From Thermodesulfobacteriota bacterium (lineage in GTDB: Bacteria; Desulfobacterota; Desulfobulbia; Desulfobulbales; SURF-16), in assembly GCA_039715015.1 (NCBI GenBank), contig JBDLIE010000002.1, positions 32,001-96,000 on the forward strand: 64,000 bases of DNA, written 5' to 3'. Each line of letters begins with the position of its first letter. Position 1 is the stretch's first letter. This document shows, piece after piece, positions 6,758-48,899 of the stretch. A program made the translations under genes and the position numbers. The notes below the pieces were generated by a model. It was not told the DNA's origin and searched no databases. It saw only the letters and a list, made by a program, of their open reading frames with translations.

Positions 6758-6771
6758 GCCATCAACTCTGG

Positions 6772-11904: not shown

Positions 11905-12032
11905 AAGATATCCTTAATCCGGCTAAGATGGTCTTCTTTCAGCCGCACTTGAAGGGGTAAGACCCTCTCATCCCAAAGCTGGCAAGAGGTTCCAGTTGAC
12001 CTCTTCATCCATCTTCTCTATTTCCCCACATA

Positions 12033-12917: not shown

Positions 12918-12922
12918 ATTTC

Positions 12923-14083: not shown

Positions 14084-14090
14084 CTCTATA

Positions 14091-18923: not shown

Positions 18924-19014
18924 GTAGATTTATAAAAGTTGCTAAGGAAGCAGCAAGAAAGACTAAACAACAAACAAGTAAACAGAGAACAAGAATCCGG
19001 GCTTATTAGAAATC

Positions 19015-21344: not shown

Positions 21345-21401
21345 GGTACAATTCCCATCTAAAATTTTTAAACTATACCTTCGCATCCACGAACTTCAAT
21401 T

Positions 21402-23081
21402 ATGAGTTTGCCATCAAAAAATAATATAGGCACCATCCTACTGGTTGATGATGAACCGGAAATTCTTGAGCTTCTTCAACGCCAGCTTGAAGTAAGAAAT
21501 TTCTCCATCTTCACTGCCCAATCAGGTAATGAAGCCCAGGTCATACTGCAGGACAACAGTATTGATATACTAGTTACGGATGTCCGAATGCCTGGGATGG
21601 ACGGCATTAGCCTTCTGGAAAAGGCTTTGGAGAAGCAACCTGATCTTCAGTCAGTGGTTATAACCGGCCATGGCGACCTCGATACAGCCCTACGCGCCAT
21701 GCGCTTGGGTGCCTATAATTTCCTCTTAAAACCAGTTGGCGTTTCAGAACTGGAAATCACCTTAAAAAACTGTCTGGAGAAAATTTACCTCAAAAGAAAA
21801 ATAACCCTTCAACAGGAAGCGTTGCAAAAAGCCCATGATGAGCTTGAGGTCCGCGTAGCGCAGAGAACCAAAGAGCTTACCCACGTTAATCGATCACTCT
21901 CGGCGGAGATTGATCTTAATGCCCGGGTCTTTGAGGATTTACAGAAGAAAGATCAACAGCTTCGCCATTCTCAGAAAATGGAGGCCTTAGGGTCGCTGGC
22001 CGGCGGCATTGCCCATGACTTCAATAATCTGCTCATGGGTATCCAGGGTCACGTTTCCCTGCTCATATCCCATTACGATTCCTCTAAGCCGGAATTTTCC
22101 CATCTCGTGAGCGTAGAAAACCTCGTGGAGAGCGGTGGGCGCCTTACCCGCCAACTCCTTGGTTATGCCAGGCAAGGCCAATACGATGTCCAGCTTCTTA
22201 ATTTACATGACCTCATCCATGCCCTTATGGAGACCTTTTCAAGGACGCGTAAAGAAATTTCTGTTCATAGCGACCTGACAGCAGAGACTCTCATCATTAA
22301 TGCTGACCAAGGCCAGATTGAACAGGTTCTCTTCAACCTCTTTATTAATGCTGCTGATGCCATGCCTGACGGCGGTAGCCTTACCATAACGAGTAAACGT
22401 GTTCCTTACAAAAACATTAAAGACAAACTGGTTGAGGGCATTCGGGGCGACTACATACATCTGGCAGTTACAGATACAGGAACTGGAATACCTGATGACA
22501 TCAAGCTTCAGATCTTTGAACCCTTTTTCACCACCAAAGATATCTCCCGTGGCACGGGTCTGGGCCTGGCCTCTACATACGGCATTGTTGCTGCCTATGG
22601 TGGACATATTGAGTTAGATTCCACCATGGGTGAAGGTTCGACATTCCATATCTACCTCCCTGCCTCGGCGGAGAGCCCTGCCGTATCTGGCCGGACCTCG
22701 GCGCTCAGCAGTCAAACACCGGAAGGAACCATCTTGCTGGTCGATGACGATGAGTCCATCCGGGAAACTGCTCAGGAGCTTCTTGAGGCAAGGGGATTCC
22801 AGGTGATAACGGCGGAAGATGGTTATTATGCCGTGGAGATTTATCGAGAAAAAGGAGAGCAGATCAGTCTTGTTGTTCTTGATATGATCATGCCCCGGAT
22901 GGGAGGGAGTGAGACCTTCGATAAATTGCGCGAGATGGATCCAGACATCAAGGTGCTGCTCTCTACCGGCTACAGTATTGAAGGGCAAGCCAATGAAATT
23001 GTCAGCCGAGGCTGCGCCGGTTTTATCCAAAAGCCCTTTAACATGGCTGATCTCACCAAGAAAGTTATGGAGATCATTTAG
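21402..23081 (+). CDS. Cytoplasmic hybrid kinase REC-HisKA-HATPase-REC
   Basis: LLVDDE..DVRMPG, AHDFNN, GTGLGL, and a second receiver LLVDDD..DMIMP. Confidence 0.93.
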   Translation: MSLPSKNNIGTILLVDDEPEILELLQRQLEVRNFSIFTAQSGNEAQVILQDNSIDILVTDVRMPGMDGISLLEKALEKQPDLQSVVITGHGDLDTALRAMRLGAYNFLLKPVGVSELEITLKNCLEKIYLKRKITLQQEALQKAHDELEVRVAQRTKELTHVNRSLSAEIDLNARVFEDLQKKDQQLRHSQKMEALGSLAGGIAHDFNNLLMGIQGHVSLLISHYDSSKPEFSHLVSVENLVESGGRLTRQLLGYARQGQYDVQLLNLHDLIHALMETFSRTRKEISVHSDLTAETLIINADQGQIEQVLFNLFINAADAMPDGGSLTITSKRVPYKNIKDKLVEGIRGDYIHLAVTDTGTGIPDDIKLQIFEPFFTTKDISRGTGLGLASTYGIVAAYGGHIELDSTMGEGSTFHIYLPASAESPAVSGRTSALSSQTPEGTILLVDDDESIRETAQELLEARGFQVITAEDGYYAVEIYREKGEQISLVVLDMIMPRMGGSETFDKLREMDPDIKVLLSTGYSIEGQANEIVSRGCAGFIQKPFNMADLTKKVMEII

Positions 23082-32261: not shown

Positions 32262-34883
32262 TTACAGAATTTTCTGCAAAGCCTGATAGTCTGTCTTACC
32301 TGTGCCAAGGACAGGAATCTCCTCAACTTCGACAAGACGGCGGATATTATGAAGGGCTGAAAGCCCGGCTTTGCGGATGGCCTTATTGGCCTGATCCCTT
32401 GTTATGCCGAAGGTAACAAAGAGAACCACCTCAGGCTGCTCCTCATCCGGGGTTGCCTCCACGGCCAGGGGAACACCTTCATCATTATCAGTATCGAGTG
32501 TGGCCAATAGGGCTGCTTCGATGGCAGGCAGGGAAATCATCTCACCTCCCAGCTTGATAAAACGTTTGAGGCGGCCACGAAAACTGAGAACACCCGCACC
32601 ATCCTCTGAAACCAGGTCACCTGTTTCATACCACTCTTTGCCGTCATGCTCCACAAAGGGCTGCTTGCCGTCATGATTGAGGTAACCCTTAAAAACATTA
32701 GGACCTCTCACCAGGAGCATACCCTGTTCTCCTAAACTTACGGGTTTGCGGCCATCCACATCGACAATAACATGCTCCATGGAGGGCAACATAGGCCCGA
32801 TGGTGCCAGGCACTGGATTGTCCGGATTATTGAGGCTAACGCCAGGGGCGCACTCCGTAACACCGTAGGCCTCACACATCACAACCTGGGGACAATCCTT
32901 GGCCATAGATTGATAGACATGCTCAGGGCATTTTTCTGCCCCGGTAAAGACCAGGCGAAGAGTGTCGAGCTGCCCTGGCTCAGCGGCGCGCAGAATACCG
33001 TTTAAAAAGGTAGGAGTGCCAATCAAAACGGTGTTCTTGTACACCTCAGTAATTCTAGCAAGGACACCAGCCTCGGTAGGGTTAGCATGATAAACCGTTT
33101 TCATGCCCATACACACAGGGAGGAGAAGTGTTCCGGTGAGCCCCAATGAGTGGAAAGGCGGCAGCATACCCAGCAGGCTATCATCACCATGAAATTTCAA
33201 AACCTGGGCAACATCCTGAAGGTTAGCAAGAAAGTTTCCGTGGCTTAGGGGCACGGCCTTAGGTCTGGCCTCGGAACCGGAGGTAAAAAGAATAGCTGCA
33301 ATGTCAGTAGCGGATCCATGACGAGAAAGCAGAGACCAGCTCCCATAACTTTTCATCTTTGCAGAAATTTTCCGCGGCAGGGAAAAGGTCTTAGCCAAGT
33401 CTTCAAGATGGAGCCAATCCGCCTTGAGGCCGTCAAGCTTAATCCCCTGCCCTGCCAGACGACCTACCAGGGCTTTTGCAGAAACCACCGTTTTCACCCC
33501 AACCTTCTCAAGGCAATAGGCCATATTGCCCTCACCAACGGTCCAGTTCACCATCACCGGTGTTTTCCCGGCAAAAAGCAAGGCAAGATAGCCAATGGTA
33601 CAGCCCACGCCAGCCGGCAGCATGAGTCCGACATTATCGCCGGGGATCTTGGCAAATTCCGGCACCAAAAGATGAAGGGCCGTTACAATATCGCGATTGC
33701 TGCGAGCACCACTGCGTAAATCAGCAACGATGGTTTTAGAGGGATTATTTATGGCTTGCTGCAGAAAAAGCTCTGTGATGGTCTCCCCTTTACCCAGGGT
33801 CAAAAGATCGGTGTTCTTATTGGTAAACCATTTTGCAGGAGGAGCGGAGACCTGATCATTTTTGCGGCTGATGATCTGACCAGAAGCAGCCAAGAGAAGA
33901 TCCTCGGCTGTATTAAGCGCTTCTAAATCATCAATGGTATAGCCAAACTCCTGTTCAATCCAGGCGGCAATCTCTGCCAGCCCCAGGGAGTCTACCCCCA
34001 GTTCACTGGCAAGCTTGTCCTTTTTGAGAATATTTTCGGCGCCGCTTATCTCTGTTATCTTGGCAAAAACCTGTTTTATCACCGCGTCGCTTACCGCTCC
34101 GGAATCTCCAGTGATTTTCTTTCGGCCAGGTTCCGGCATAATGCGCGGCCTGCTTCCCTTCCACCAAAAGTGGGGGACAAAGGTATTTGCAGCGGCCTTG
34201 CTATTATAGAAATCTTCTAAATATCGATTTAACACCAGCCTCTCGCCTGAATGGGGGATATCCTCAGGTTCTTCAAATTCGATAACAACCTGCCGTTTGG
34301 GCATAAAAAAAATAGCGTTCATCAGGAAGTAAAAGAAATGCTTGATGATATCGGCAAGAAGTGTGGGCGTTTTGCCGCTGGCCTTCGAAAAGGAGGAACC
34401 CCAAAGGCCTGTGGTTCGGACAAGCACAACGCGAATGTCCGGGGCCTGTTTTAGGATGGCAGCAACACCACCATTCCCCCGGATGGATTCATTTTGACTG
34501 CGATAGATACGCCCGGATGGGTAGAGCAGAACATTATCACCATGGTGCAAACTTTCGGTGATCTCGCCCATGGCTTGTAAAACCTCATCGCGGCTATGGC
34601 GGCCCTTGGTGGCGATATCCGGGATCGTTACACAGCGCACCATCTTCATTACCTGGCGGACAACCGGGATATCGACCTGGCTCTCGTCCGCCAGAGGACG
34701 GGGCCTAAAACGCTTATGCAAGGAGACATACATGATCAAGGGATCAACAAGAGCTGGATGGTTGGGCAGAAACAGGATGCCCTGCTGGGGGCCTGTTGGT
34801 TTGAGCCGGTCCAATCCCTTAAGAGTAATACGATAGCGCAAGCGCAAAAGAGTGCGCATAATGAAAACGATTATATTCAGCAT
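32262..34883 (-). CDS. Aas-like acyltransferase/ACP/acyl-ACP synthetase fusion
   Basis: PlsC motifs NHPALVD and YPSG, ACP motif LGVDSL, AMP-binding motifs FTSGSEARPK and GTGKTDY. Confidence 0.87.
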   Translation of the reverse strand: MLNIIVFIMRTLLRLRYRITLKGLDRLKPTGPQQGILFLPNHPALVDPLIMYVSLHKRFRPRPLADESQVDIPVVRQVMKMVRCVTIPDIATKGRHSRDEVLQAMGEITESLHHGDNVLLYPSGRIYRSQNESIRGNGGVAAILKQAPDIRVVLVRTTGLWGSSFSKASGKTPTLLADIIKHFFYFLMNAIFFMPKRQVVIEFEEPEDIPHSGERLVLNRYLEDFYNSKAAANTFVPHFWWKGSRPRIMPEPGRKKITGDSGAVSDAVIKQVFAKITEISGAENILKKDKLASELGVDSLGLAEIAAWIEQEFGYTIDDLEALNTAEDLLLAASGQIISRKNDQVSAPPAKWFTNKNTDLLTLGKGETITELFLQQAINNPSKTIVADLRSGARSNRDIVTALHLLVPEFAKIPGDNVGLMLPAGVGCTIGYLALLFAGKTPVMVNWTVGEGNMAYCLEKVGVKTVVSAKALVGRLAGQGIKLDGLKADWLHLEDLAKTFSLPRKISAKMKSYGSWSLLSRHGSATDIAAILFTSGSEARPKAVPLSHGNFLANLQDVAQVLKFHGDDSLLGMLPPFHSLGLTGTLLLPVCMGMKTVYHANPTEAGVLARITEVYKNTVLIGTPTFLNGILRAAEPGQLDTLRLVFTGAEKCPEHVYQSMAKDCPQVVMCEAYGVTECAPGVSLNNPDNPVPGTIGPMLPSMEHVIVDVDGRKPVSLGEQGMLLVRGPNVFKGYLNHDGKQPFVEHDGKEWYETGDLVSEDGAGVLSFRGRLKRFIKLGGEMISLPAIEAALLATLDTDNDEGVPLAVEATPDEEQPEVVLFVTFGITRDQANKAIRKAGLSALHNIRRLVEVEEIPVLGTGKTDYQALQKIL

Positions 34884-36148
34884 GGAGAATCCTTCTTACC
34901 ATAACGTTGAAAAGCAAAACTAAAACAAAAGGCAGCAACTGCTGTTGTAGAACCAAGGATCAGCATGGCAGTGCTGGGAGAGAGATTTCTATTCAATATC
35001 TCAAAGCAGGTGCCGGATAAGAAAATACCGCTGAAGGCGGAAAAATTTGACACCGCTATAATCTTGCCCTTTTGGTCCTTCCGGGGGCGAAGTTGAATAA
35101 AACTGGCCAGTGGTATGAGAAAAAGTCCTCCACCACACCCAGCAATGACAAGGGCCAAGATGAGCAAAGGCAGTTGAAGGCTCCCTCCGGTGAAATGGAT
35201 AGCCCCGAAGCTCGCCACAAGACCACACCCCATAACCAATACCGCCGGCCCCATAACCTTATGCCATCCCGGACCACTGGCAATCTTGGCAGCGAGGAAA
35301 GATCCGGCACAGACGCCAACCATGAGAGAAACCACGAGAAGGCTGGTCATGGTTTGCGACAGACCAAGCTCGGTTAAGCCCATAACATTTATCACTAAAA
35401 CGACAATGGAGGATATGAAATAAAAAAAAGCATCTCCACCAATGGCAGTAAGCAGAAGGCGGTCAGTCCGTACTTTGTAGAGATCAATAAGGGAGTGGAG
35501 AGGGCCAAGCCACGGAAAACTCTCACGTGCTCCTGCAGCCGGTCGTTTAACCACGCCAAAGCTCACCAACACACCAATGACAGAAACCAAGAGAACAAAA
35601 ATCGCCACTAACACCCTGCCAAAGGGGACAGCTGTGGCATACCAGCTCTGATCCAAGGCCACTCCTGCTAAACCGATACCGGCAAGGATAGCCAGGGTAG
35701 TGACAAGCTTGATCACGGCATTGGCCGTGGTCACATATTCTTTAGGGTAGAGTTCTGGGATGGAGCCATTAATGGCAGGCCCAAAAAGAGTGGACTGAGC
35801 CGCCATAATAAAGACCATGGCCAGGATACAAGGCCAATTCAGGGTCATTATTCCATAGGCCCCCACCAACATGGCGCCAAGCTCTAAGATCTTGGCGCCC
35901 ACCACAACATTTTTCTTAGAAAACCTGTCGGCAAGCCACCCAGCATGAGCTGAAAAGAGAATAAAAGGCAGCGAAAAAAGCATGGTAGCTGTGCCCTGTA
36001 GACCGCTTAAACCAGCGCTTACGGCAAGAAGCATGGCCGCCTGTTTAAAGAAATTATCGTTAAAAGCGCCCATAAAATAGGTAATGGCCATAGCAATAAA
36101 ACGAGAACGGCCTTTTTTAATCTGCGCTTCTATTTCAGGGGAATACAT
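34877..36148 (-). CDS. LplT-like MFS lysophospholipid transporter
   Basis: GAFNDNFFK, LPFILFS..AGWLADRFSK and QSTLFGP motifs; overlaps the aas-like gene. Confidence 0.85.
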   Translation of the reverse strand: MYSPEIEAQIKKGRSRFIAMAITYFMGAFNDNFFKQAAMLLAVSAGLSGLQGTATMLFSLPFILFSAHAGWLADRFSKKNVVVGAKILELGAMLVGAYGIMTLNWPCILAMVFIMAAQSTLFGPAINGSIPELYPKEYVTTANAVIKLVTTLAILAGIGLAGVALDQSWYATAVPFGRVLVAIFVLLVSVIGVLVSFGVVKRPAAGARESFPWLGPLHSLIDLYKVRTDRLLLTAIGGDAFFYFISSIVVLVINVMGLTELGLSQTMTSLLVVSLMVGVCAGSFLAAKIASGPGWHKVMGPAVLVMGCGLVASFGAIHFTGGSLQLPLLILALVIAGCGGGLFLIPLASFIQLRPRKDQKGKIIAVSNFSAFSGIFLSGTCFEILNRNLSPSTAMLILGSTTAVAAFCFSFAFQRYGKKDSPC

Positions 36149-37353: not shown

Positions 37354-37836
37354 ATGACAACAACCCTCTTTCTCCATGGTCTTGACTCTTCTAGCCAGGG
37401 AACTAAAGGCCGTTATTTCAACACCCATTTCCCAGATGTCCTCAGTCCTGATTTCAATGGTGACCTTGAGCAACGTTTAATTCAGCTTGAAAAGGTCTGC
37501 TGTGACTTTGAAAAAGTTATTCTCATCGGCTCAAGTTTTGGTGGGCTCATGGCCACATGTTTTGCCATTCTCCACCCATCGCGTGTGGTAAAGCTTATTC
37601 TTCTTGCCCCGGCATTAAATTTCGAAGATTATCATCCCCCTGCAACCATGATTGCTTCCCCTACCCTTCTTGTTATGGGCGCACAAGATAGTGTCTGCCC
37701 GCCTGAGATAGTCGTGCCATTAGCAGATGCAACGTTTAGCAACCTGAAGACCCAGATCTTTGCTGATGATCATCTTTTAAGAAAGGTATTTCCTGAGATG
37801 GACTGGCACAAACTGCTTGGCGGCGCGGGGAACTGA
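37354..37836 (+). CDS. Small alpha/beta hydrolase (YqiA/YcfP-like)
   Basis: LHGLDS, nucleophile elbow GSSFGG, and Asp/His in GAQD and DDH. Confidence 0.85.
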   Translation: MTTTLFLHGLDSSSQGTKGRYFNTHFPDVLSPDFNGDLEQRLIQLEKVCCDFEKVILIGSSFGGLMATCFAILHPSRVVKLILLAPALNFEDYHPPATMIASPTLLVMGAQDSVCPPEIVVPLADATFSNLKTQIFADDHLLRKVFPEMDWHKLLGGAGN

Positions 37837-37854: not shown

Positions 37855-39156
37855 TTACTCTGATTCGCCATAGCGATACTTGATATCCTGCAGAATAAAA
37901 TTCTCCAGGGTGTTATCAAAGGAACCTTTCAAACAATCCACTTTTTCCATATTGCCGTCTCTGACCAAAGCCAGATAACGGCACCCCCCAAAACAAAGGG
38001 GCAGATATTGGCATGAGCGGCATTTATTCTCATATTGCCAGTTATCGGTATGATACATAGAAATTTCTTTAACACCATTCCAGATATCACCTATCTCATA
38101 GTCGGGACGGCCAATAAGAACCGGACATTTACACAATGTGCCATCATAATTAATGGTCAAACTGTCATGACGCAGCACCTTGCACGGATTAGGCTTTTCC
38201 TCAGGGTAATAGTAGCCGGCTGCAAGTATTTTCTCTCTTAGCATTGACTGTGCCTGGACAAGCCACGTCTCTGTTAAAGTCTCACACCCTTGGCGATAGC
38301 TGCTCTCGGCAACATCATCCGTCTGCTGCATAACCGATGCAAAACGCACCTGATGAAGATGGTCCGGGCCAAGGTCTTTCTCTGCCAGGATATCCAGTAA
38401 CTCGGGAAATCGGTTATAGATGTGTTCAGTGAAATTCCCACCAAGGGATAGGGTGATCAGATCAGCACAGGATCGAAGATTTTCCAGAATAACAGCAAAG
38501 CTTGGTTTCCCAGAGATATAGGGGCGAGAATTATTGTGAAGATCAGGTGGGCCGTCCAGGGTTATCTTGGCTCCCACAAGTCCGTATGGGATAAGGCTTT
38601 TTACTGTTTCAGAGGTCAACAGTGAGCCATTAGTGATAAGGGAAAATTCAAACTCTCTCTCTCTCTGGGCCGTCATTTCCTGAAAGCCCTGACAAAGTTG
38701 CCGTATCAACGGCACATAGAGAAGGGGTTCACCGCCATAAAAGGTGATACTGAGCTTATCCCTGTCTTCAAACTGGCCCTCAACATACTTCAGCAGTTGA
38801 GCAGCAGTGTCAGCAGACATTGAAGACTTATCAGCTTTCAAACTCCCCTCATAGCAATAGGAACAGGCAAAATTACAAGCCATCCCTAGAATGATATCGA
38901 GATATAGACCTGAGCATCTTTTATTTATCTGATCAACAAAGGAGAAAACCTCTTGCTGTTCCGCCTCCAGGTCGTCCACAACAAAACCAAGCTCCGCAAG
39001 TTGTGGAACTATTTCGCCATCAAAACTACCTGATTTGAGGGCAACGAAATCAGCATCTTCCACAACAACAAGAGCTCCATTTTTGGTGGAATATAAAACA
39101 GTGAGACCTGATGAAGTATCCAATGGGAAATTTTTCAGGTAATGGGAAAGATGCAT
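37855..39156 (-). CDS. Radical SAM/SPASM peptide maturase (geopeptide-maturase-like)
   Basis: CNFACSYC, FYGGEPL, ITNG and TLDG; SPASM C..DGTLCKC..CRSCQYLPLCFGGC..C; N-terminal extension; small peptide ORF upstream. Confidence 0.9.
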   Translation of the reverse strand: MHLSHYLKNFPLDTSSGLTVLYSTKNGALVVVEDADFVALKSGSFDGEIVPQLAELGFVVDDLEAEQQEVFSFVDQINKRCSGLYLDIILGMACNFACSYCYEGSLKADKSSMSADTAAQLLKYVEGQFEDRDKLSITFYGGEPLLYVPLIRQLCQGFQEMTAQREREFEFSLITNGSLLTSETVKSLIPYGLVGAKITLDGPPDLHNNSRPYISGKPSFAVILENLRSCADLITLSLGGNFTEHIYNRFPELLDILAEKDLGPDHLHQVRFASVMQQTDDVAESSYRQGCETLTETWLVQAQSMLREKILAAGYYYPEEKPNPCKVLRHDSLTINYDGTLCKCPVLIGRPDYEIGDIWNGVKEISMYHTDNWQYENKCRSCQYLPLCFGGCRYLALVRDGNMEKVDCLKGSFDNTLENFILQDIKYRYGESE

Positions 39157-39196
39157 AAAGCGAAGAAGGTATCAGTAAAAACATGGTCATCAAACA

Positions 39197-39228
39197 AAAC
39201 GAGGAGACCTTAAAAGGTCTCCTCGTTT
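39197..39228 (-). terminator. Strong hairpin / leaky terminator between precursor and maturase
   Basis: 15-bp inverted repeat aaacgaggagacctt-aa-aaggtctcctcgttt; on the minus strand the arm ends in a U-rich run (ttttgttt). Confidence 0.75.
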
Positions 39229-39256
39229 CACATAAACTTTTCTAGGATTTCCTGGA

Positions 39257-39352
39257 TCAACCGCTTGGAGCACCGGGAGGGCAGAAAGCTTTAGATTTTG
39301 CAATAACCTCTGCCGTTGTTCCTTGATTTAAAACTATGACCTTCTTTTTCAT
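39257..39352 (-). CDS. Putative RiPP precursor peptide MKKKVIVLNQGTTAEVIAKSKAFCPPGAPSG (31 aa)
   Basis: Strong RBS GGAGGT 7 nt before the ATG. Lies between the TonB receptor and the rSAM/SPASM gene. Leader-like N-terminus and Cys/Pro/Gly core. Confidence 0.8.
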   Translation of the reverse strand: MKKKVIVLNQGTTAEVIAKSKAFCPPGAPSG

Positions 39353-39437
39353 TCTATCAACCTCCGCGCTAAATTACCTAATCAATGAGTGGATCATTTT
39401 CAAATAAACCTATCACACCGTTACCTAAAAAACAAAT

Positions 39438-41411
39438 TTAAAAATTTAACTTTAAACCCACCTCAGCATGTCTAGGAGAATTCTCAAAACGTTCTTGTAC
39501 GTACTGGCTTGAATTAAATAGATTTCGTACTACACCAAAAAGGGCTGCCCGGAATTTTTCTGTACTAAAAATTTCTTTATTCAAGCTGATATCCCAGAGA
39601 AAATTGTTCGTTTCCAGTGGTTCAGGAAGCTCGGTGAGAAGTTCGCCCCACTTCACATAATGTCCGGAAATCTCTGCCGTGAGAATGTCAGGATGATCAT
39701 AAATGAAAATAATATTTGCCGTACTTGAATGATCAGCTTGATCCTCTGGCCAGTCAGTATAAGTATAGGTAAAATTAGCCTGGAGGGAAAGGTGATAAAA
39801 AGCCTCAGTGCGCACTTCAAATTCAAATCCCTGACGTTGGCTACGATCACCATTCATCTTCCAAATGCTGTAATCAGGGGCAGTTACCCAGGTATTCTCG
39901 ACGTCATGATGAAACAAGGTTGTTTTGACGTGAAGATAGGGAATGTCCTTACTCTCTAAACCAATTTGGTAGGTCCAATTTTTTTCTGCGTCCAAATCAG
40001 GATTAACCACGGTAGGGCTGTATAAGGCATCACCCTCAAGATACCAGACCGGTGGTTTGCGAAAGCCTCGGGAAACGGACGCCCTCAGCAAACTAGCATC
40101 ACTAAGCTGGTATGTAACACCGAGTGAAGGGCTTATTAACTCATCGGAGACTGTGGAAATATGATCAAGGCGAACGCCTGGAGTAATTGTCCAATCATCA
40201 AATACAAAGGTTCCGTTTAGATAGTAGCCTGACACATCCTCAGCGAGGAGATCCATTTCGTAATAATCACCCATGGGGGCAAGGTGTGGATAAAAGAAAT
40301 CCCAGATGCTGCTATCTCTATACTTCCAAGTCATCTGAACCTCATTACGTTGATAGTCAATACCGGCTACCAAGGCATGTTTTCCCAAAAGATAGTCGAA
40401 TCGAAGAGCACCACCTGTACTCTCTTGATCATTAAAAAAATCCTCAATTAGAGTGATGGGTCGATGGGTGGTTTTTTGAAAAGCCCTATAGTCATTATCA
40501 AAACGAAAGATCTCAGCATGAAAATTAAGTCCTTCGGCAATGAGGGCGTCAAAACGAGCACTCATAAATGTATTTTTATCATGAAGTTCCTGGCTATAAC
40601 CCATGGGCGGGTTAACTGAGTAAGCCGTAAGCCACTTAACGTGCAAAAATTCCGGTTGTGAATAAAACCCTGAAACATCAAGGGTCATATCGGAGGCGAA
40701 GTCAAAATGAAACTTGCCGTAACCAGTTGTATTCTTGAAAAATCTATCCTCAAGGAGGCCGTCAGACTCCTGGTTTCCAGCATAGACATAATAACTTAGA
40801 GAAGAAACCTTTCCGGCCACTTCGGCAGTGATATCGTGGGTGTCTTTTTCTCCAAAGGAGGTCACCAAGTCAACCTGCGGAGTTTTTGACTTCCCTGGAT
40901 CCTTAGTAATAATATTAATAACTCCACCCAAAGCTGATCCCCAAGTGGATGAGGCAGCGCCCTTAATCACTTCAATTCTTTTGATAATCCGGACGGGAAC
41001 CATATTTACCCAGGCGACTTCTACAGAACTCTTATTCACCCTTACTCCGTCAAGAAGAACCGTCACATGTTCCCAGTCAGATCCCTGAATATAGATATAA
41101 GATGCTGTGTTGAAATCAAGCCCTCCGTAATCCACATAGACCCCGGCCACCCGGTTAAGAACATCGTCAACATTATGGGCGTTCATCCGCTCGATTTCTT
41201 CTGCGGTAATGATGGTGACATTCTCTGCCACCTGATTGATAGGTTTCCTGATGCGAGTGGCAGCTTCAACAACTTGCGACTCGTCAAAATAAAGATCGAG
41301 AAACTCGTCATCACCAGCCATCTCCGCTGCTTCCCCGGCAAGGACGGAATTTGGCACAATGAATAAACACGGTACTATTAAGATGAGCCCCAAAAACAAA
41401 AACTTGTGCAT
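39438..41411 (-). CDS. TonB-dependent receptor
   Basis: Signal peptide, plug motif IKRIEVIKGA..GGVINIIT and C-terminal Phe; start at ATG 41411 after GGGGA. Confidence 0.92.
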   Translation of the reverse strand: MHKFLFLGLILIVPCLFIVPNSVLAGEAAEMAGDDEFLDLYFDESQVVEAATRIRKPINQVAENVTIITAEEIERMNAHNVDDVLNRVAGVYVDYGGLDFNTASYIYIQGSDWEHVTVLLDGVRVNKSSVEVAWVNMVPVRIIKRIEVIKGAASSTWGSALGGVINIITKDPGKSKTPQVDLVTSFGEKDTHDITAEVAGKVSSLSYYVYAGNQESDGLLEDRFFKNTTGYGKFHFDFASDMTLDVSGFYSQPEFLHVKWLTAYSVNPPMGYSQELHDKNTFMSARFDALIAEGLNFHAEIFRFDNDYRAFQKTTHRPITLIEDFFNDQESTGGALRFDYLLGKHALVAGIDYQRNEVQMTWKYRDSSIWDFFYPHLAPMGDYYEMDLLAEDVSGYYLNGTFVFDDWTITPGVRLDHISTVSDELISPSLGVTYQLSDASLLRASVSRGFRKPPVWYLEGDALYSPTVVNPDLDAEKNWTYQIGLESKDIPYLHVKTTLFHHDVENTWVTAPDYSIWKMNGDRSQRQGFEFEVRTEAFYHLSLQANFTYTYTDWPEDQADHSSTANIIFIYDHPDILTAEISGHYVKWGELLTELPEPLETNNFLWDISLNKEIFSTEKFRAALFGVVRNLFNSSQYVQERFENSPRHAEVGLKLNF

Positions 41412-41825
41412 TACATCCCCCGACAATGCTTTAAAAAAAAATAGCCGCTCTCCTAAAAAAGGAAATTATGGCTCAAAAAACATTTAATTTTTTTAAAAAT
41501 GTTGCCCTGCAAAAAGGACTTCCGAAAAACTTTTTCCAAAATATTATATAAAACTTTAGAATCTTTTACCAATTCATTATTGAAACATCTAGTTTTGGAC
41601 AATCACTCTCTTTTGCAGTTAGGACACATATTTCATCTCTCAGATTTAAATGAATGAAAGCAACCATTCTTCCTGACAACAAATTGCAATTATTAATGTA
41701 AATATTCTTTGAATATACTAAGGTTAAAAGTATTGGTTTTCCTCTGATTATCAGGAAATCCTCTGAAAAGATTAATTTTTCGTATATTTTTTTGCGGCAT
41801 CTCTTTTTTAAAACAAGCAAACTAC

Positions 41826-42734
41826 ATGCTTAAACACTTCGTCCTGTCTATTTTCCTTATATTCTCGACGGCCTCCTATTCCTATGGCTTCGAGGTGGTT
41901 GCTGTGAAGTCCAGCACAGCCGAACCCTATAGCCTCGCTTTTGAATCCTTCAGCCGCACTTTCACCAGTGCCGTACCTACCCGTGGGCCTAAATCGATAA
42001 CACAGAACGCGATAATTACCCGCACCATTAATCAGGATGACACCCCTGACAGACTTGTGCGTCAAATCCGCAAAGAGAATCCTGACCTTCTAATTGCCTT
42101 TGGTTCAAAAGCATTACGATTTACTGCTTCCATCAAAGACATCCCTATTATTTACCTGCTGGTTCCGTCCCCAGACAAAATCATTAGAGATAGGAGCAAT
42201 GTCACAGGTGTTCTTCTTCAACCTGTGGCTGGCCTCGAATTTCGGGCCCTTCGCAAGATAGCCCCCGCTTTAAAAAGAATCGGCGTAGTCTACAACCCTG
42301 CCAAAAGCAAGGATCTCGTCAGGGAGACGATCAGCAACAATAAAGATCTCCATTACATGCTGCGTCCGGTTCAACAGCCTCAAGAGGTGGCCAAACAACT
42401 TGACACTCTAGCCTCGGAGGTCGATCTGGTTTGGATGCCACCCGACAGTACTGTTCTCACGCCTCACACTGAGCAGAGTTTTTACCTTTTTTCTCTGCAA
42501 AACGAGGTTCCTCTCCTTGCTTTTTCAGAGAAATATCTCAAAAAAGGGGCCAGTTTTGCTGTAAGTCTCGACCTCTCCAGCATGGGAGATATGGCGGCAG
42601 ACCTTGCCCTGCTCATAAAAAATGGCGCCAAGGCCGTCAACATCCCACCCATCCGGCCCCAACAGGTAAAACTTAAACAAAACAGCATTATCCTCAACAA
42701 GCTTGGTTTCCATATCCAGGAGGTCGGCCAATGA
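41826..42734 (+). CDS. Periplasmic ABC-type substrate-binding-like sensor protein
   Basis: Signal peptide, PDLLIAFG, RIGVVYNP and WMPPDSTV; no permease or ATPase nearby; overlaps the kinase gene. Confidence 0.8.
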   Translation: MLKHFVLSIFLIFSTASYSYGFEVVAVKSSTAEPYSLAFESFSRTFTSAVPTRGPKSITQNAIITRTINQDDTPDRLVRQIRKENPDLLIAFGSKALRFTASIKDIPIIYLLVPSPDKIIRDRSNVTGVLLQPVAGLEFRALRKIAPALKRIGVVYNPAKSKDLVRETISNNKDLHYMLRPVQQPQEVAKQLDTLASEVDLVWMPPDSTVLTPHTEQSFYLFSLQNEVPLLAFSEKYLKKGASFAVSLDLSSMGDMAADLALLIKNGAKAVNIPPIRPQQVKLKQNSIILNKLGFHIQEVGQ

Positions 42735-44494
42735 TCTTTGCAAAATTTATCAAACAGGTTCAGGCAAGCTATTCAGCCAAACTCATTTTGATTTTTATTG
42801 CCTCTATATGCCTGATGGGTACCATTCTTAACTTCACCTTTATCCGTATGCAGCAAGACTCCTACGCGACATACACACGCAACAGTGGTCTTTCCATGTC
42901 TCGACTGCTGGCCAAGTCTGTCCAGATCGACGTTTTCACCGAAAACAAAGAACAGTTAGCCATCCCTATGGACGCCCTTTTAAGCCAGGAAAATATTCTT
43001 AAGGTTGAAATATTTACCGACAAAGGTGAGTTGCTGGTTTCTCGAGCTTCAAGTGAGAGCTGTGAGATTCCTGACTTAAAAAAAACACTGGGCGATTTGC
43101 CGCAAAGCAAATCGTCCTTTAATGAGTGGCCCAATTGTTTTTCCTTCATATGGCCTGTTCTGACACTCCCTCAATATAAAAGCGAAGACTCCCTCTACTT
43201 TGATGAAGCCAGCGAACTCACTCCTGTGGACAATCATCCCCTGGGATACGTTTCCATCATCATGTCGAAACGTCAGTATCAGCAGGACATTCAGCAAATT
43301 TTTCTTAAAACCGGCCTCACTATTCTTTTCATTTTAGTACTCTTGGTCACCGGCATTCTTCTGCTTTTCAGAAAAATGACTCTGCCGTTAAAGAATCTGA
43401 TAGGGAAGATACAAAGAGAACGAAACATTGGCGAGGTACATGATGACATTGGCCTTCTTGACACCACAGTTACCAGCCTAGTTGACGAACTTGACCGTTC
43501 TTTTCAAACCATTAACGATCTAACCACAGGCCTGGAGGACAAGGTAACAGAACGCACCAAACAGCTTGCCATGGCCAATACTGAATTGACCAACCGTCAG
43601 GAGTATCTTGAAGAGTCAAACCTAAAACTTGAAAAGGCGATGAAGGAGCTTAAGGAAACAGAAGGCCAACTGATCCAGTCTGAAAAAATGGCGGCATTAG
43701 GTCAAGTTGTGGCAGGCGTTGCCCATGAGATCAACAACAATATCAACTTTATATCCGGGGCACTACCATCGCTGACCCGCGCCCTAAGTGACATTCAAAA
43801 ACTGACAAAAAAATTTGACGAGGCCTTTGTCCAGGCGTCCGGGGATGATGCTGAAAAAAAACAGCAGGAAGCAATCGCCCTAAAAAAAGAGCTTGAAGAG
43901 GATAATCTCTTCAACTCTCTGGATCAACTCATGGCAAACATTCGTGAAGGCGTCAACCGGACAACGAGCATCGTTTCTGAACTGCGTACTTTTTCTCGCT
44001 CTGACGAGCAGGGCTTCAAAAAGGTCGATCTCCACGATTCCATTAATTCAACCATCACCTTTCTGAACAAGAAATATCTTACAGATGTTGATATCCACAA
44101 AGATTATGGCACTATTCCGCCGGTAAGTTGCCGACCGGGCCGGATAAATCAGGTTTTTCTCAACATTATGAATAACGCCATACAGGCCATGGGGAAAAAG
44201 GGAGGCATCCTGACAATTAGCACTTTTCTTAATGGCGACGACGTACATATCCGTTTTACCGACACAGGGGCCGGAATAAACCAAGATACCCTTCCTAAAA
44301 TTTTCGACCCCTTTTTTACGAATAAAGACACAGGTGAAGGATCAGGCATTGGCCTTGCTGTGAGTTACAAAATTATCCAAGAGCACCAAGGCCGGATCGA
44401 CGTGCAGAGTAAAGAGGATAAAGGCAGCACCTTTGAAATCGTTCTACCGATGGAACACGTCGATGAGACGATCTCTGAGTCTAAGAACAGTTAA
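42731..44494 (+). CDS. Membrane sensor histidine kinase
   Basis: Two TMs, HAMP-like coiled coil, AHEINN, DTGAG, FDPFFT and GSGIGL. Confidence 0.93.
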   Translation: MIFAKFIKQVQASYSAKLILIFIASICLMGTILNFTFIRMQQDSYATYTRNSGLSMSRLLAKSVQIDVFTENKEQLAIPMDALLSQENILKVEIFTDKGELLVSRASSESCEIPDLKKTLGDLPQSKSSFNEWPNCFSFIWPVLTLPQYKSEDSLYFDEASELTPVDNHPLGYVSIIMSKRQYQQDIQQIFLKTGLTILFILVLLVTGILLLFRKMTLPLKNLIGKIQRERNIGEVHDDIGLLDTTVTSLVDELDRSFQTINDLTTGLEDKVTERTKQLAMANTELTNRQEYLEESNLKLEKAMKELKETEGQLIQSEKMAALGQVVAGVAHEINNNINFISGALPSLTRALSDIQKLTKKFDEAFVQASGDDAEKKQQEAIALKKELEEDNLFNSLDQLMANIREGVNRTTSIVSELRTFSRSDEQGFKKVDLHDSINSTITFLNKKYLTDVDIHKDYGTIPPVSCRPGRINQVFLNIMNNAIQAMGKKGGILTISTFLNGDDVHIRFTDTGAGINQDTLPKIFDPFFTNKDTGEGSGIGLAVSYKIIQEHQGRIDVQSKEDKGSTFEIVLPMEHVDETISESKNS

Positions 44495-44559
44495 AAAATA
44501 TTTTTTTACTTTAATGAGAGGTGAAGCACACCTCATTAAACATGTTGCGGGGTAAACTT

Positions 44560-46395
44560 ATGGATAAGCTGAAACTCCTTTATGTAGATGATGAAGAGGT
44601 GAATCTTTCCAATTTCAAAATGGCCATGAAACGCCATTTTTCGATTATCACAGCACTATCTGCCAAAGAGGCGCTCGACAGCTTTGCCGAACATGACGAC
44701 ATTGCTCTTGTGGTTGCCGACCAGAGAATGCCCGGAAAGACCGGTACCGAGCTCCTGGGAGAAATTCGTGAGCTCAATTCTGATACGGTTCGCATTATGC
44801 TCACAGCCTATAGCGATCCTGCAGATATCATGGAGGCCATTAACACCGGTGAGGTATACCATTATCTAACAAAACCATGGAAGGAAGAGATCCTTCTCGA
44901 CATCCTCAGCAAGGGCTCTGAAAAATATCGCCTGACCAAGGAAAACAAATCATTAGTTGAGCAACTGACTGTAAAGAATGAAGAACTTAAGCAAGAGTTG
45001 CAAACCAGTCGTCTCTTAAAAGACTCTCTTGTCAGACGTGATCTCATCCTGGCAGCTGTAAATGAGACGTCGCAAAAAATCATCAGCAGCTCCTATTGGC
45101 GCAAATTCACAGAACCTCTTATTGGGCGCCTAGGGCTTGTTATGGCGGTTTCCCGCGTTCACATATACAGCTTCCAAAAAGATTCTTTTGAGAAGCTTAC
45201 TGCCAATCAGGAATTTGAATGGAGCTCTGAGACAGCAGGCGCAGATAATGTTCCGCCTGTGCCCGAAATTTTCTCCTTCCCTGATGCTCAATTGGATCGC
45301 TGGCTCTCTCTACTCCAAAAAGGCGAATCTGTGGTGGACAACACTACGGACCTTCCCTCGCCTGAGACCTCCTTGCTCAATTCTCTAGGAATTATTTCAA
45401 TAGTCTGCACGCCCATTATGGTGGAGGACTCTTGCTGGGGCTTTCTCAGTCTTGAAGACTGCAGCACAGAACGGACCTGGCCGGAGCTTGAGGTTGCAGC
45501 TATAAAAAGCGCTGCAAGCCTCATTGGCGAAGCGGTTCACCGGCAAGAAATGAACATCGAACTTTCCGCCAAACAGGACCAGCTGGCCCATGCTGGAAGA
45601 CTCACCGCCATTGGCGAAATGGCAAAGGGTATGGCCCATGAAATCAACCTTCCAATGAGCCTAATCAGTCTTGGGGCAGACGAGCTGCATCAATATCTAA
45701 CCAAGAACATACCAGAATCCCCCTATATAAAAACAACCAAAGACATAAGCGGCCAGGTTTCAAAGGTGATGCGCATAATCGAACATATGCGTGTATTCTC
45801 AACACTGTCCAAAGAAAACATCACTGACATCAACCTTTTCTGGACAGTGAACAGCGCTCTCACCTTTTTCCGTGAGCAGTTCAGGGTTTCTCTCATCAAA
45901 CTACACGAGGAAACCACTGAGGCTGTATCGTATATCTCAACTGACAACCAGAAGGTTGAGCAGATACTGGTCAACCTTCTGGCCAATGCCCGTTATGCGG
46001 TGATAAAAAAATCTGAAGAAATTAAAAATTTCCCCATGGAGGTATGGGTCAGACTCTATCAACAAGAACTCACTGATGACATTCTAGAAAAAATTTCTGC
46101 TCAAGACAGAAAGGACGATCTCACAGCCGTTCTTGTTTTAGAAGTGGAAGATAATGGTATCGGTATGTCTGAAGAAACCATAAAACATTGCACAGAACCT
46201 TTTTTCTCCTCTAAAACTGTGGGTGAAGGTACTGGCCTGGGCCTCTCTGTCTCCAATTCCTTAATCAAGGAGCTCGGATTTCATCTTGAGATAGAATCTG
46301 CCTTGGGTGAGGGTTCTCTTTTCCGGCTCACAATCCCAGCCTACGAAGAATACCCAATGCTTCTCGACAACAACCAGGTTCAGTTTAAGGGATAA
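44560..46395 (+). CDS. Cytoplasmic REC-GAF-histidine kinase
   Basis: Receiver LLYVDDE..DQRMPG, GAF (SIVCTPI..WGFL), AHEINLP and GTGLGL. Confidence 0.92.
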   Translation: MDKLKLLYVDDEEVNLSNFKMAMKRHFSIITALSAKEALDSFAEHDDIALVVADQRMPGKTGTELLGEIRELNSDTVRIMLTAYSDPADIMEAINTGEVYHYLTKPWKEEILLDILSKGSEKYRLTKENKSLVEQLTVKNEELKQELQTSRLLKDSLVRRDLILAAVNETSQKIISSSYWRKFTEPLIGRLGLVMAVSRVHIYSFQKDSFEKLTANQEFEWSSETAGADNVPPVPEIFSFPDAQLDRWLSLLQKGESVVDNTTDLPSPETSLLNSLGIISIVCTPIMVEDSCWGFLSLEDCSTERTWPELEVAAIKSAASLIGEAVHRQEMNIELSAKQDQLAHAGRLTAIGEMAKGMAHEINLPMSLISLGADELHQYLTKNIPESPYIKTTKDISGQVSKVMRIIEHMRVFSTLSKENITDINLFWTVNSALTFFREQFRVSLIKLHEETTEAVSYISTDNQKVEQILVNLLANARYAVIKKSEEIKNFPMEVWVRLYQQELTDDILEKISAQDRKDDLTAVLVLEVEDNGIGMSEETIKHCTEPFFSSKTVGEGTGLGLSVSNSLIKELGFHLEIESALGEGSLFRLTIPAYEEYPMLLDNNQVQFKG

Positions 46396-46504
46396 AGCTT
46401 GGAAAAAATAGCCGGCAAGAGAAAAAAAACCTCGCGCTCTCTAACAAACTCTATTAGCATCTTATCATAGGTGCACACTACTCAACTGTAAGGAGCCGCC
46501 GCCC

Positions 46505-46888
46505 TTGATTTCAGCAAGAAACAATAAAGTCTTGATTGTTGATGACCAGCCACTTAACAGGCTTTTTCTTGCCGACCTTCTCAAGATGCATGAGATCAAT
46601 CCCACCGAAGCCACCAATGGCAACGAGGCTGTCCAGCAGTGGCTTAAAAATGATTATGCAGTCATTCTGATGGATATCAAAATGCCAGACCTAAATGGCA
46701 TTGATGCCACACGGATCATCCGACAGAAAGAAATGGAACAGGGTTTAGCCAAAACACCGATTATAGCTGTTACCGCTTACGGGACCAAAGAAACCCAGAA
46801 TGATTGCCGGAATGCCGGCATGGATGGCTATATCCCCAAGCCGGTTAATGTATCAGATCTCCTCGAAATGATAGAAAACCTTCATTGA
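46505..46888 (+). CDS. Single-domain response regulator
   Basis: LIVDD, LMDIKMP, AVTA and KP receiver motifs. Confidence 0.9.
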   Translation: MISARNNKVLIVDDQPLNRLFLADLLKMHEINPTEATNGNEAVQQWLKNDYAVILMDIKMPDLNGIDATRIIRQKEMEQGLAKTPIIAVTAYGTKETQNDCRNAGMDGYIPKPVNVSDLLEMIENLH

Positions 46889-47024: not shown

Positions 47025-47987
47025 TCAGTCGTTAGCTGGAAAATTTTCCGTCACTATACGCACCATATTGCTGCGAGGAAATTCCTTTTTCAAAAGAGAC
47101 TTCAAGTTCTTTTTAAGTTTCCCAACCCCAACCTCAAACTCATCCACCGAGAAACCCTTTTCCTTGATTAAAACCCGTTGCTGATCAAGCTTGACCAAGG
47201 TCAGAGAGCGGTCACGTTTATAGGTCAACAAAACAAGTGATCCTCCCTCATTAAGTTGAGACATTTTCTGGATTACAACAGGCACCACATTAGCAATATC
47301 CACCATTATTTCTTCACTCACACTGGTTAATGAATCACGCTCCAAAAGCGCTTGTTCTTCCATCTCAAAATCTGCTGCCATGCTCATTTGCTTTGAAGCT
47401 GCATCTTTACGTTTTCTTGGAGCTACAGACCTTACCTCTGGAGAAGCGGGCATTTCATTTTTCTTTGCCTCTTGCTGAAAGACAAGTGCCGGGGCCGGCA
47501 TTGGCTCTTCTTCAGTCACCAAACTTTTCCCTTGCTGCGGCGCTTCAACGATTGCATCTTCACTAGACATAGGCAACTGTGGGGTGTCCTCGGTAATTAT
47601 AGGAGAAGTTGCCTTATGCTCCACCGGAGGTGGCGGCGCAAGATTGATGTAGAGGAGAATACTAGCTGCCGCTGCAAGCAACGAACCTGCAGTGGCAAAA
47701 CTAAGTGCTCGCTTTGCAAGCCATGGGCCTTTAATGACCTTTCCTGAACCAGCAAAATTTTCCATACTTAAAAGACGCCACTCATCATAGCAGGATTGAC
47801 ATTCTGCCAAATGGGCAAGACAATGCTGTCTCTCCACCTCTGAGAGAGAGCCATCAACCAGCAATGCCATCTTGTCAGAAGTCAGACAGTTACCACTTTT
47901 AACGTCCTTGCTGGCTGCAAGCGCCGTCAGGGCTGTGGCCTTATTTGATTCTGTAAAAAGGTTGTCTTGCTTACTCACCAATCCCAC
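47025..47987 (-). CDS. Membrane-anchored zinc-binding (zf-HC2) anti-sigma factor
   Basis: HLAECQSC (HxxxCxxC) followed by one TM; downstream of the sigma-like gene. Confidence 0.75.
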   Translation of the reverse strand: MGLVSKQDNLFTESNKATALTALAASKDVKSGNCLTSDKMALLVDGSLSEVERQHCLAHLAECQSCYDEWRLLSMENFAGSGKVIKGPWLAKRALSFATAGSLLAAAASILLYINLAPPPPVEHKATSPIITEDTPQLPMSSEDAIVEAPQQGKSLVTEEEPMPAPALVFQQEAKKNEMPASPEVRSVAPRKRKDAASKQMSMAADFEMEEQALLERDSLTSVSEEIMVDIANVVPVVIQKMSQLNEGGSLVLLTYKRDRSLTLVKLDQQRVLIKEKGFSVDEFEVGVGKLKKNLKSLLKKEFPRSNMVRIVTENFPAND

Positions 47988-48041
47988 CTATATTTTTCAA
48001 TAATCCCATACTGCCATAGACGGACATATCAAACATCTTTG

Positions 48042-48899
48042 TCAACATTCTTGGTTTAATAACAACAGTAGTTCTTCCGCCAGCCCTGCATCAGTAAATG
48101 TTTTTTTGAGTCGTAATAAGAGGCGGCGCATCTTACCGTGGGCCTGATGAACTGTCAGTTTAAGGAGCTTGGCGGCCTGGGAAACAGAAAGCTCATCTTG
48201 AAAACAGAGCTTCAACAGCAACCTCTCCTCAGCGCTCATAGATATCGAAATATCCATTACTCCGCGAAAAGAGTCATTCATGGAAGGGGTAACAGGTTGG
48301 TCCTGGAGAAGGTTTTGGAAGATGATGGCAAAAAGAATACCCCGCTCCTTTTTTTCCAAGTCTGCCACTTGGCTTTCCTGACCCGGAGAAGGTTCACAGT
48401 CCATATCGCCATCGCTGGTAAGATCTTCCTTACCGCTATATTTCCCGCAGTCGGTTATTTCAGACAGGATACGCGAGGCTGCCTCTTCAGCATCAAAATG
48501 GACGTCGGGACCACACGTTTCCAGGCGGTTTAAAGCATCGGGCAAGGATTGGCGCTCTAGACACAAGAAACGATAGAGAACAAGCCACCAGCCTCCAAGC
48601 TTTGTGAGCCAAGAGGGAGGTCGCAATCGCCCAAATCGACTCCGACTGAAATCCTCAAAGAGGCGGCAGGTCACCGAACCGAGATAGCTCGAAAATCGGG
48701 CCCGGCCGGAAAACCCGGCAAGACGTTTACCATCGCCATCCTGCAATTTCTCCAGGGCATAGACCACAGCCTCCTCAGCCAGGCCAGGATCGTTAAAACG
48801 CCTGGCTGCCAAGCGATCAAGCAAGGCGAGATGGTCATGGATTTTCTCTACAAGTTTTTTCGACACAGACACATATCCAAGCCACAGGGCAACCTTCAT
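48042..48899 (-). CDS. Atypical ECF-type sigma-70 family factor
   Basis: Region 2-like AEEA..FSSYL..RLFEDF; region 4-like MSAEERLLLKL..LSVSQAAKLL; long linker between them. Confidence 0.72.
   Translation of the reverse strand: MKVALWLGYVSVSKKLVEKIHDHLALLDRLAARRFNDPGLAEEAVVYALEKLQDGDGKRLAGFSGRARFSSYLGSVTCRLFEDFSRSRFGRLRPPSWLTKLGGWWLVLYRFLCLERQSLPDALNRLETCGPDVHFDAEEAASRILSEITDCGKYSGKEDLTSDGDMDCEPSPGQESQVADLEKKERGILFAIIFQNLLQDQPVTPSMNDSFRGVMDISISMSAEERLLLKLCFQDELSVSQAAKLLKLTVHQAHGKMRRLLLRLKKTFTDAGLAEELLLLLNQEC

Follow-up and report, generated by a model that had tools for sequence, protein, structure and literature searches.

A stretch of 64,000 nucleotides from a Thermodesulfobacteriota bacterium (assembly GCA_039715015.1, contig JBDLIE010000002.1, forward-strand positions 32,001 to 96,000; hereafter the window) contains a cassette of the geopeptide type, in which the genes for a small precursor peptide and its predicted radical S-adenosylmethionine (rSAM) maturase are accompanied by genes for a TonB-dependent outer-membrane receptor, a periplasmic binding protein and a membrane sensor kinase (Table 1). 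Dozens of loci in other genomes contain the same set of genes side by side, which puts their grouping far beyond chance, and the precursor represents a subclade whose single-cysteine core is kept under purifying selection. We tentatively read this arrangement as a cassette for a ribosomally synthesised and post-translationally modified peptide (RiPP) that comes with dedicated genes for its uptake and sensing, by which the peptide would be made, exported, re-imported through a TonB-gated receptor and sensed in the periplasm; we place this reading a little below an even chance.

Peptide signalling is a textbook subject in Gram-positive bacteria and is, to our knowledge, hardly known in bacteria whose cells have an outer membrane, a barrier that peptides of such size do not pass without help. 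If the proposed reading is true, the combination of a modified peptide with a TonB gate and a kinase-based periplasmic sensor would explain how outer-membrane bacteria could use peptide signals. The geopeptide family is a named but unstudied kind. TIGR04280, the maturase family, has no more than hypothetical-equivalog status in NCBIfam, and a literature search found the names 'geopeptide' and 'TIGR04280' in no paper and no paper on such a cassette, in keeping with the initial annotation, which had described the geopeptide families as putative and lacking a demonstrated function. What is new here is the single-cysteine subclade under purifying selection, a modelled contact between the binding protein and one loop of the kinase, and the existence of the same sensor pair without receptor or peptide.

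Every gene named in the initial annotation is present where, and on the strand on which, it had been placed. The divergent gap between the two operons, described there as AT-rich and about 410 nucleotides (nt) long, measures 399-414 nt, and G+C content is 29% at 41400-41799. A Pfam scan of 54 open reading frames (ORFs) in the window, 15 around the cassette and 39 chosen outside 32-51 kb, recovered no ABC permease or ATPase, an absence that had likewise been reported.

Table 1. Positions of the cassette genes and associated sequence features, in window coordinates
Feature	Position	Strand	Size and basis
Radical SAM/SPASM peptide maturase, geopeptide maturase family	37855..39156	-	433 aa; TIGR04280
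Stem-loop with U-rich tail in the precursor/maturase spacer, terminator or attenuator	39188..39229	-	folding
Precursor peptide, MKKKVIVLNQGTTAEVIAKSKAFCPPGAPSG, single-Cys geopeptide variant	39257..39352	-	31 aa; own precursor profile
TonB-dependent outer-membrane receptor	39438..41411	-	657 aa from ATG; Plug + barrel
Conserved block with sigma-70-type promoter of the receptor-peptide-maturase operon	41532..41581	-	promoter scan, L143 comparison
Second conserved intergenic block, candidate operator/promoter of the binding-protein operon	41671..41720	.	L143 comparison
Periplasmic PF04392 binding protein without transporter	41826..42734	+	302 aa; PF04392
Membrane sensor histidine kinase HK1 (sCache_4/HisKA/HATPase)	42731..44494	+	Pfam domains
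REC-GAF histidine kinase HK2	44521..46395	+	Pfam domains
Single-domain response regulator, receiver only	46505..46888	+	PF00072

Precursor peptide, maturase and receptor

The maturase passes the TIGR04280 cut-off end to end (469.5 bits, cut-off 400, spanning positions 1-428 of the 428-position model) and is the sole copy above cut-off in its genome, which confirms the membership of the geopeptide maturase family first suggested for it. It matches the radical SAM domain PF04055 with 58 bits and contains the motif CNFACSYC (CX3CX2C) and a Cys-rich C-terminus with a cysteine cluster at about residues 291-407; the Pfam SPASM model PF13186 scores 17.8 bits against a cut-off of 21.5. The protein is an outlier, with six nearest database relatives at 55-61% identity and all others at 49% or less; the NCBI name given to relatives is 'geopeptide radical SAM maturase'. 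The runner-up families (TIGR04463, CefB, PapB, QhpD and SCIFF; 97-161 bits, all far under their own cut-offs) are thioether-forming or Cys-peptide maturases, and the closest solved chain is 5wgg (E-value 3.3e-17). The likeliest modification would be a thioether-type cross-link around the core cysteine. In three other genomes (L052 5019-7100, L053 9620-11800 and G211:C821) the maturase carries a C-terminal extension of ~290 aa, for a total of 693-735 aa; this extension has no Pfam match and might add a further tailoring or processing function to the enzyme as a fused domain.

The precursor gene is preceded by a GGAGG ribosome-binding site 8 nt ahead of its ATG and ends 100 nt before the start of the maturase gene. 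A profile that we built from 26 precursors of other genomes ranks the peptide first of 1815 window ORFs (E-value 6.2e-6, 22.7 bits; next best 0.12), with a match that covers the leader and ends at the first cysteine. Position and leader similarity together bear out its assignment as the precursor that belongs to the maturase. The leader retains ..VIVLNQG.. in the proposed recognition region, corresponding to ..I-V-L-x-x-G.. in the family, and the sequence ..KAFCPPGAPSG aligns gap-free to the CC-x-G-x-P of relatives, so that in the core, FCPPGAPS(G), Cys-Pro replaces the Cys-Cys of the family. This Cys-Cys is present in 26/27, 28/28 and 21/22 precursors of three sets, the latter two of which share some contigs; an exception, in L056, reads Cys-Lys-Cys. 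The only precursors with neither Cys-Cys nor Cys-x-Cys, 2 of about 75, are those of the window and of L143, a metagenomic contig from a close relative with the same single-Cys core. As a side observation, precursor number also varies, and in the L080/L129 variant of the cassette L080 has two tandem precursors.

The peptide had been expected to belong to the geopeptide precursor family TIGR04229, and this expectation failed: it has no match even at E<=10 and lacks the Cys-Cys of that family. The TIGR04229 model is narrow, with 22 positions, and none of 29 candidate precursors from relatives reaches its 30-bit cut-off (best 29.6). The missing match, and the rarity of a core without the second cysteine, would fit a decaying or silent remnant in which loss of that cysteine marks a dead precursor in a disused cassette. 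Comparison with L143 leads us to reject this explanation, which we regard as very improbable. Identity between the two loci is 78% for the maturase (first 114 residues), 75% for the receptor, 82% for the binding protein, 83% for HK1 and 90% for HK2, and across this 75-90% identity range the core is unchanged: its 13 codons, AKSKAFCPPGAPS, show 7 synonymous differences and 0 non-synonymous ones, whereas 7/17 leader residues have changed and the last residue is G or W. All six protein genes of the window are full length with intact motifs, and the hairpin and intergenic blocks are kept in L143 as well; the single-Cys variant is therefore no product of decay, and the codon pattern shows purifying selection on its core. 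The variant also narrows which residue the maturase needs.

The hairpin that the initial annotation had noted between the peptide and rSAM genes gave no call in a terminator scan of the window and was located by folding, which revealed a stem of 15 bp without mismatches and a U-rich tail behind it (centroid -26.5 kcal/mol, z -3.18; 3/200 shuffles fold equally well). L143 retains it with a C-G to A-T swap on both arms, as read by eye, and 17 of the 27 related loci described below have a stable fold in the same spacer (z<-2, mononucleotide shuffles). The promoter facing the receptor gene comprises TTGGTA, an 18-nt spacer and TATAAT at 41572-41543, with 10/12 matches in the promoter scan. Its block differs from L143 at 3/47 positions over a 47-nt stretch, and the second block (41671-41720) is identical at 46/50; the remainder of the gap is indel-rich. 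Control by a sigma-54 promoter was considered and rejected: the pattern search of the window returned 97 matches against 81 expected, and a scan of 53 loci gave neither a consistent site nor one in the gap of the window, with possible -24/-12 sites upstream of the L042 and L049 precursors only. Sigma-54 enhancer-binding response regulators are encoded in or adjoining L039, L041 and L047 (Pfam) and probably L043 (same cluster); the window has neither such a regulator nor a candidate site of this kind upstream of its precursor.

The receptor gene likelier starts at the ATG at 41411, which is followed by a signal peptide read from the sequence; the ORF from a TTG extends to 41426. The protein contains a Plug (PF07715, 77.3 bits) and a barrel domain (PF00593, 111.9 bits) and ends in a C-terminal Phe. 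Every named NCBIfam receptor family, substrate subfamilies included, falls far short of its cut-off; the closest solved chain is BtuB (E-value 8e-19), and CirA, CntO and FoxA are the further nearest.

Conservation of the cassette in other genomes

Our sample of the phylum comprised 401 genomes, which were searched for the maturase at the TIGR04280 cut-off; 26 were positive, a frequency that makes the cassette common in metal- and sulfur-cycling anaerobes. Of 29 places above cut-off in other genomes, 27 were fetched with up to 10 kb on each side, and two on contigs of at most 4.1 kb were omitted. A receptor homologue adjoins the maturase in all 27. The binding protein is encoded at 23 of these loci, with three of the four misses at contig ends; L063 has none within 6 kb and a copy on another contig of the same genome, and all 26 positive genomes contain the protein. 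The sensor kinase lies beside the binding protein in 20 of the 23 loci; in two more the contig stops before this position, and in L045 the place is taken by an aconitase gene. All-against-all clustering of the 27 loci returned just four recurrent families, namely receptor, maturase, binding protein and kinase.

A second set, 26 Desulfobulbales loci of named genomes, gave a profile-matching precursor in 26/26, a receptor in 25/26 and binding protein plus kinase in 20/26; L094 of this set comes from the isolate Hydrosulfovibrio ferrireducens CB1MN, a cultured carrier of the cassette. Four of the six loci that miss the latter pair have no room for it on the contig (three end within 700 nt of the receptor gene, and the fourth, L091, has no receptor within its 5.8 kb); L083 and L086 show no binding protein within about 3 kb. 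The survey of gene neighbourhoods suggested in the initial annotation was in this way strongly positive for the receptor, the binding protein and the kinase. Genomes with two maturases hold two full sets, whose paralogues are 49-54% identical for the maturase, 34-54% for the receptor and 22-48% for the binding protein. Variants of the cassette were seen in addition: in L085/L133, L085 combines two maturase-precursor pairs with one common receptor, binding protein and kinase; in L088/L137, L088 has two receptors in tandem; and in L044 the maturase is flanked by two binding proteins.

The absence of an exporter and a leader peptidase, first noted for the window cluster, extends to the 27 loci, in which no exporter, leader peptidase, ABC permease, metal transporter or inner-membrane importer is recurrent; downstream of the maturase, only two loci have an MFS gene. 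A bacteriocin reading was rejected, as immunity and export genes were not found in the loci.

The receptor and the core sequences bear on an explanation that is nutritional and not social. The product could be a public-good carrier, a secreted Cys peptide that binds a metal or cofactor much as methanobactin does and, once loaded outside the cell, is retrieved through the receptor; binding protein and kinase would then monitor the returning peptide, or what it carries, and adjust production. TonB-dependent receptors of such size mostly carry metal chelates or cobalamin, as the nearest solved structures of the window receptor illustrate; Cys-Cys is the sole invariant core feature in about 75 precursors; methanobactin operons likewise pair a RiPP precursor with a TonB receptor and a periplasmic binding protein; and close relatives have well-conserved cores that are not diversifying. 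The conserved single-Cys variant of the window and L143, however, speaks against a two-thiol chelator, and neither a metal transporter nor an inner-membrane importer is conserved across the 27 loci. Further, no Fur-box-like site rises above background in the gap (best 12/19, equalled by 67 window sites), which is a weak test, and a riboswitch and known-RNA search of the window gave just three sub-threshold matches to eukaryotic families and no cobalamin riboswitch. We consider a carrier rather unlikely, though it is the main rival of the sensing circuit; if the product were one, anaerobes would possess a peptide public good of a new type.

Divergence of the core was also compared with that of its partners. 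Plain and partial Mantel tests were kept as exploratory only, because shared ancestry inflates them. With the cytoplasmic part of the kinase controlled and 499 permutations, the partial correlation with core divergence was 0.26 for the maturase (reached by 1/499 permutations), 0.16 for the binding protein (8/499), 0.14 for the receptor (36/499) and 0.03 for the periplasmic domain of the kinase (175/499). The initial annotation had suggested a test of whether cores co-vary with receptor and binding-protein sequence; in this exploratory test core divergence seemed to follow the binding protein, and the receptor less closely.

Periplasmic sensor, proposed circuit and surroundings

The binding protein matches PF04392 with 77.2 bits (cut-off 25.9) and has a signal peptide as read from its sequence. 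It is a single copy, with no paralogue or second PF04392-like gene in the 3.0-Mb genome, and no cognate permease or ATPase for it was found among the 54 scanned window ORFs or as a conserved gene in the 27 loci. Its stop codon overlaps the HK1 start by 4 nt. In HK1 two membrane segments flank an sCache_4-like periplasmic domain that is followed by HisKA and HATPase domains. The lone receiver (PF00072, 99.2 bits) has no output domain that we could find. The kinase cascade put forward in the initial annotation holds in part: HK1 beside the binding protein is conserved, whereas the REC-GAF kinase HK2 and the lone receiver are lineage-specific and lie outside the conserved core. Full-length homologues of HK2 occur in L143 (90%) and in L038 and L039 (43%), and other loci have only a receiver-domain (REC) gene after HK1.

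The coupling of binding protein and membrane kinase, also part of the initial annotation, is supported by a model of their complex. Residues 22-302 of the binding protein and the periplasmic domain of HK1 (38-195) were modelled with an alignment of 25 rows each, giving interface scores (ipSAE) of 0.67, 0.67 and 0.66 against 0.00 for the best control, a partner predicted local distance difference test score of 73, and agreement between runs in at least 64% of contacts. The ipSAE mark used is reached by 116/157 solved complexes and 2/215 mismatched pairs, a calibration that applies only roughly here, because we supplied alignments of our own. The predicted interface consists of a single HK1 loop (residues 145-163, in which L155 and Y156 are the most prominent) set against both lobes of the binding protein, where it meets the invariant G93, P206 and F233 and the nearly invariant K236. 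The loop motif SLYFD (residues 154-158) is conserved, and most of the 25 aligned kinases show the pattern acidic-x-L-[Y/F]-F-acidic. Because the modelled loop touches both lobes, we infer that it may sit in the ligand cleft of the binding protein. A PDB sequence search returned only lone PF04392 proteins (3lkv, 6hni, 3lft) and no complex with a kinase; a search of the literature on TrpX structures for ligand contacts yielded no usable residue list, and no study or solved structure of a two-protein sensor composed of a PF04392 protein and a kinase was found.

Together these features suggest the following circuit. The sigma-70-type promoter would drive the receptor gene, the precursor gene and, past a leaky terminator hairpin, the maturase gene, and the hairpin would keep precursor RNA in excess over enzyme RNA. 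The maturase would recognise the conserved leader and modify the core around its cysteine, and the product would leave the cell by a route that the cassette does not encode. Because it is presumably too large for porins, the matured peptide would re-enter the periplasm through the TonB-dependent receptor. There it would be read by the two-protein sensor, in which the transporter-less PF04392 protein is docked on the conserved acidic-aromatic loop of HK1, and phosphate would move from HK1 to HK2 and to the lone receiver. The gene identities, their conserved linkage and the purifying selection on the core are shown by sequence, and the contact in the sensor is supported by the model; the chemistry, the export and import steps, the partner that binds the peptide and the output of this circuit are proposed.

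A number of observations weigh against such a circuit. Secretion is assumed rather than seen, because no exporter or leader peptidase is conserved. A search of listed sequencing runs for the window DNA returned two DNA metagenome runs of one study, one of them perhaps its source, and no RNA run. L063, L083 and L086 have no binding protein despite enough flanking sequence, and L045 has no adjoining kinase. The correlations of core distances are small in effect and confounded by shared ancestry. In classical peptide quorum sensing pherotypes diversify fast, which the conserved cores do not. In the model, an HK1 loop that touches both lobes of the binding protein would leave the site of the peptide unplaced. 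Finally, the known ligands of PF04392 proteins, as given for the three proteins with solved structures in Table 1 of PMC10443332, are free Trp, Tyr or Phe and not peptides.

The distribution of the sensor genes adds to these points. The binding protein is found in 54/401 genomes of the phylum sample, and 20 fetched binding-protein loci away from known maturases gave no maturase or precursor match. On the long contigs L109, L111 and L116 it is accompanied by the kinase without a receptor, and L113-L115 likewise encode a PF04392 protein paired with a kinase while lacking receptor, maturase and precursor. The kinases of these receptor-less pairs have a periplasmic domain homologous to that of the cassette kinases and a similar acidic-hydrophobic loop. 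Pairs of this kind may sense something else; because they occur without receptor and maturase, the pair is better described as a general sensor pair of the phylum than as a dedicated peptide reader alone, and the geopeptide cassette is the subset of sensor pairs to which receptor, peptide and maturase have been added.

This distribution invites an explanation in which the pair controls the operon only, reading an unrelated periplasmic cue such as an aromatic amino acid, and the peptide does something else, for instance as an antagonist or a protectant. The receptor-less pairs, the aromatic ligands tabulated for the solved PF04392 proteins and the weak partial correlation between core and binding protein all fit it. 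It would nevertheless leave unexplained why a TonB receptor is the constant companion of the peptide and why each duplicated cassette keeps its own receptor and binding protein, and no bacteriocin-type immunity or export genes are present in the loci; we judge it improbable. Returning to the re-import and sensing circuit, its most far-reaching form would be that diderm anaerobes of the Desulfobacterota use an rSAM-modified peptide as a cell-to-cell signal that needs TonB import before two-protein periplasmic sensing, that the peptide alters the grip of the PF04392 protein on the conserved aromatic kinase loop, and that the single-Cys clade, in which one cysteine suffices, marks a separate signal dialect. 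We regard this full version as unlikely.

Around the cassette, on the minus strand at 32262-36148, an LplT-like lysophospholipid transporter of the major facilitator superfamily and an Aas-like acyltransferase/acyl-ACP synthetase are encoded by separate neighbouring genes that both match a single fused NCBIfam model. An apparently truncated 160-aa alpha/beta-hydrolase ORF follows closely downstream of the maturase gene at 37354-37836 (plus strand). An anti-sigma factor (zf-HC2) and an extracytoplasmic function (ECF)-type sigma factor, at 47025-48899 on the minus strand, are transcribed towards the end of the receiver gene; because tblastn found no homologues of either in the related loci searched, the pair probably lies outside the cassette. 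A methylmalonyl-CoA pathway operon of ordinary propionate metabolism spans 4724-15980 (minus strand), with oxaloacetate-decarboxylase-type beta and gamma subunits, a carboxyltransferase, a glyoxalase-fold epimerase-like gene, methylmalonyl-CoA mutase with MeaB and a B12-binding subunit, succinyl-CoA synthetase and acyl-CoA synthetase. A cluster at 16875-23078 (plus strand) encodes a second TonB receptor (682 aa), a 202-aa protein without Pfam match, a PAS histidine kinase and a REC-kinase-REC hybrid, and contains no rSAM or PF04392 gene. It was considered as a paralogue of the cassette and rejected: the 202-aa protein and the binding protein compare with an hhalign probability of 0.3%, and the two receptors are 25% identical.

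Relation to known systems

The closest named system is the NCBIfam geopeptide pair of TIGR04229 and TIGR04280. The window cassette resembles it in a maturase that passes the family cut-off and a precursor directly upstream with the family leader, and differs in a precursor that has no TIGR04229 match and Cys-Pro in place of Cys-Cys; the database names, moreover, are silent on the receptor, the binding protein and the kinase. The thioether-forming rSAM/SPASM maturases (PapB, CefB, the SCIFF maturase, QhpD and 5wgg) are the next-best matches and share the CX3CX2C motif, the Cys-rich C-terminus and a Cys-bearing substrate. The window maturase is, however, far below their cut-offs. Acceptors known for these enzymes are Asp, Glu or Thr, and the window core has none of these after its cysteine.

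Methanobactin operons encode a RiPP precursor, the TonB receptor MbnT and the periplasmic binding protein MbnE, and thus provide a precedent for a small Cys-containing RiPP encoded with a dedicated TonB receptor and periplasmic binding protein. The modifying enzyme there is MbnBC and here an rSAM protein, the binding protein here belongs to PF04392, and signalling proceeds there through a sigma/anti-sigma system and here through a histidine kinase; no MbnB-type domain is among the Pfam matches of the 54 scanned window ORFs.

On the sensing side, LuxP-LuxQ, TorT-TorS and ChvE-VirA are binding-protein-dependent sensor kinases, and the window pair resembles them in a transporter-less binding protein that is encoded beside the kinase and modelled as touching its periplasmic domain. 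The proteins involved here are instead a PF04392 protein and an sCache_4-like domain, with a predicted contact through one acidic-aromatic loop and both lobes. In the polysaccharide utilisation loci of Bacteroidetes, TonB-dependent import is followed by periplasmic sensing through a hybrid two-component system. Those loci differ in that their ligand is a dietary glycan and not, as proposed here, a self-made peptide, in the SusD partner that the window lacks, and in proteins that are unrelated to those of the window; the common logic would be that a molecule excluded by porins is imported by a TonB-dependent transporter and then sensed by a kinase in the periplasm.

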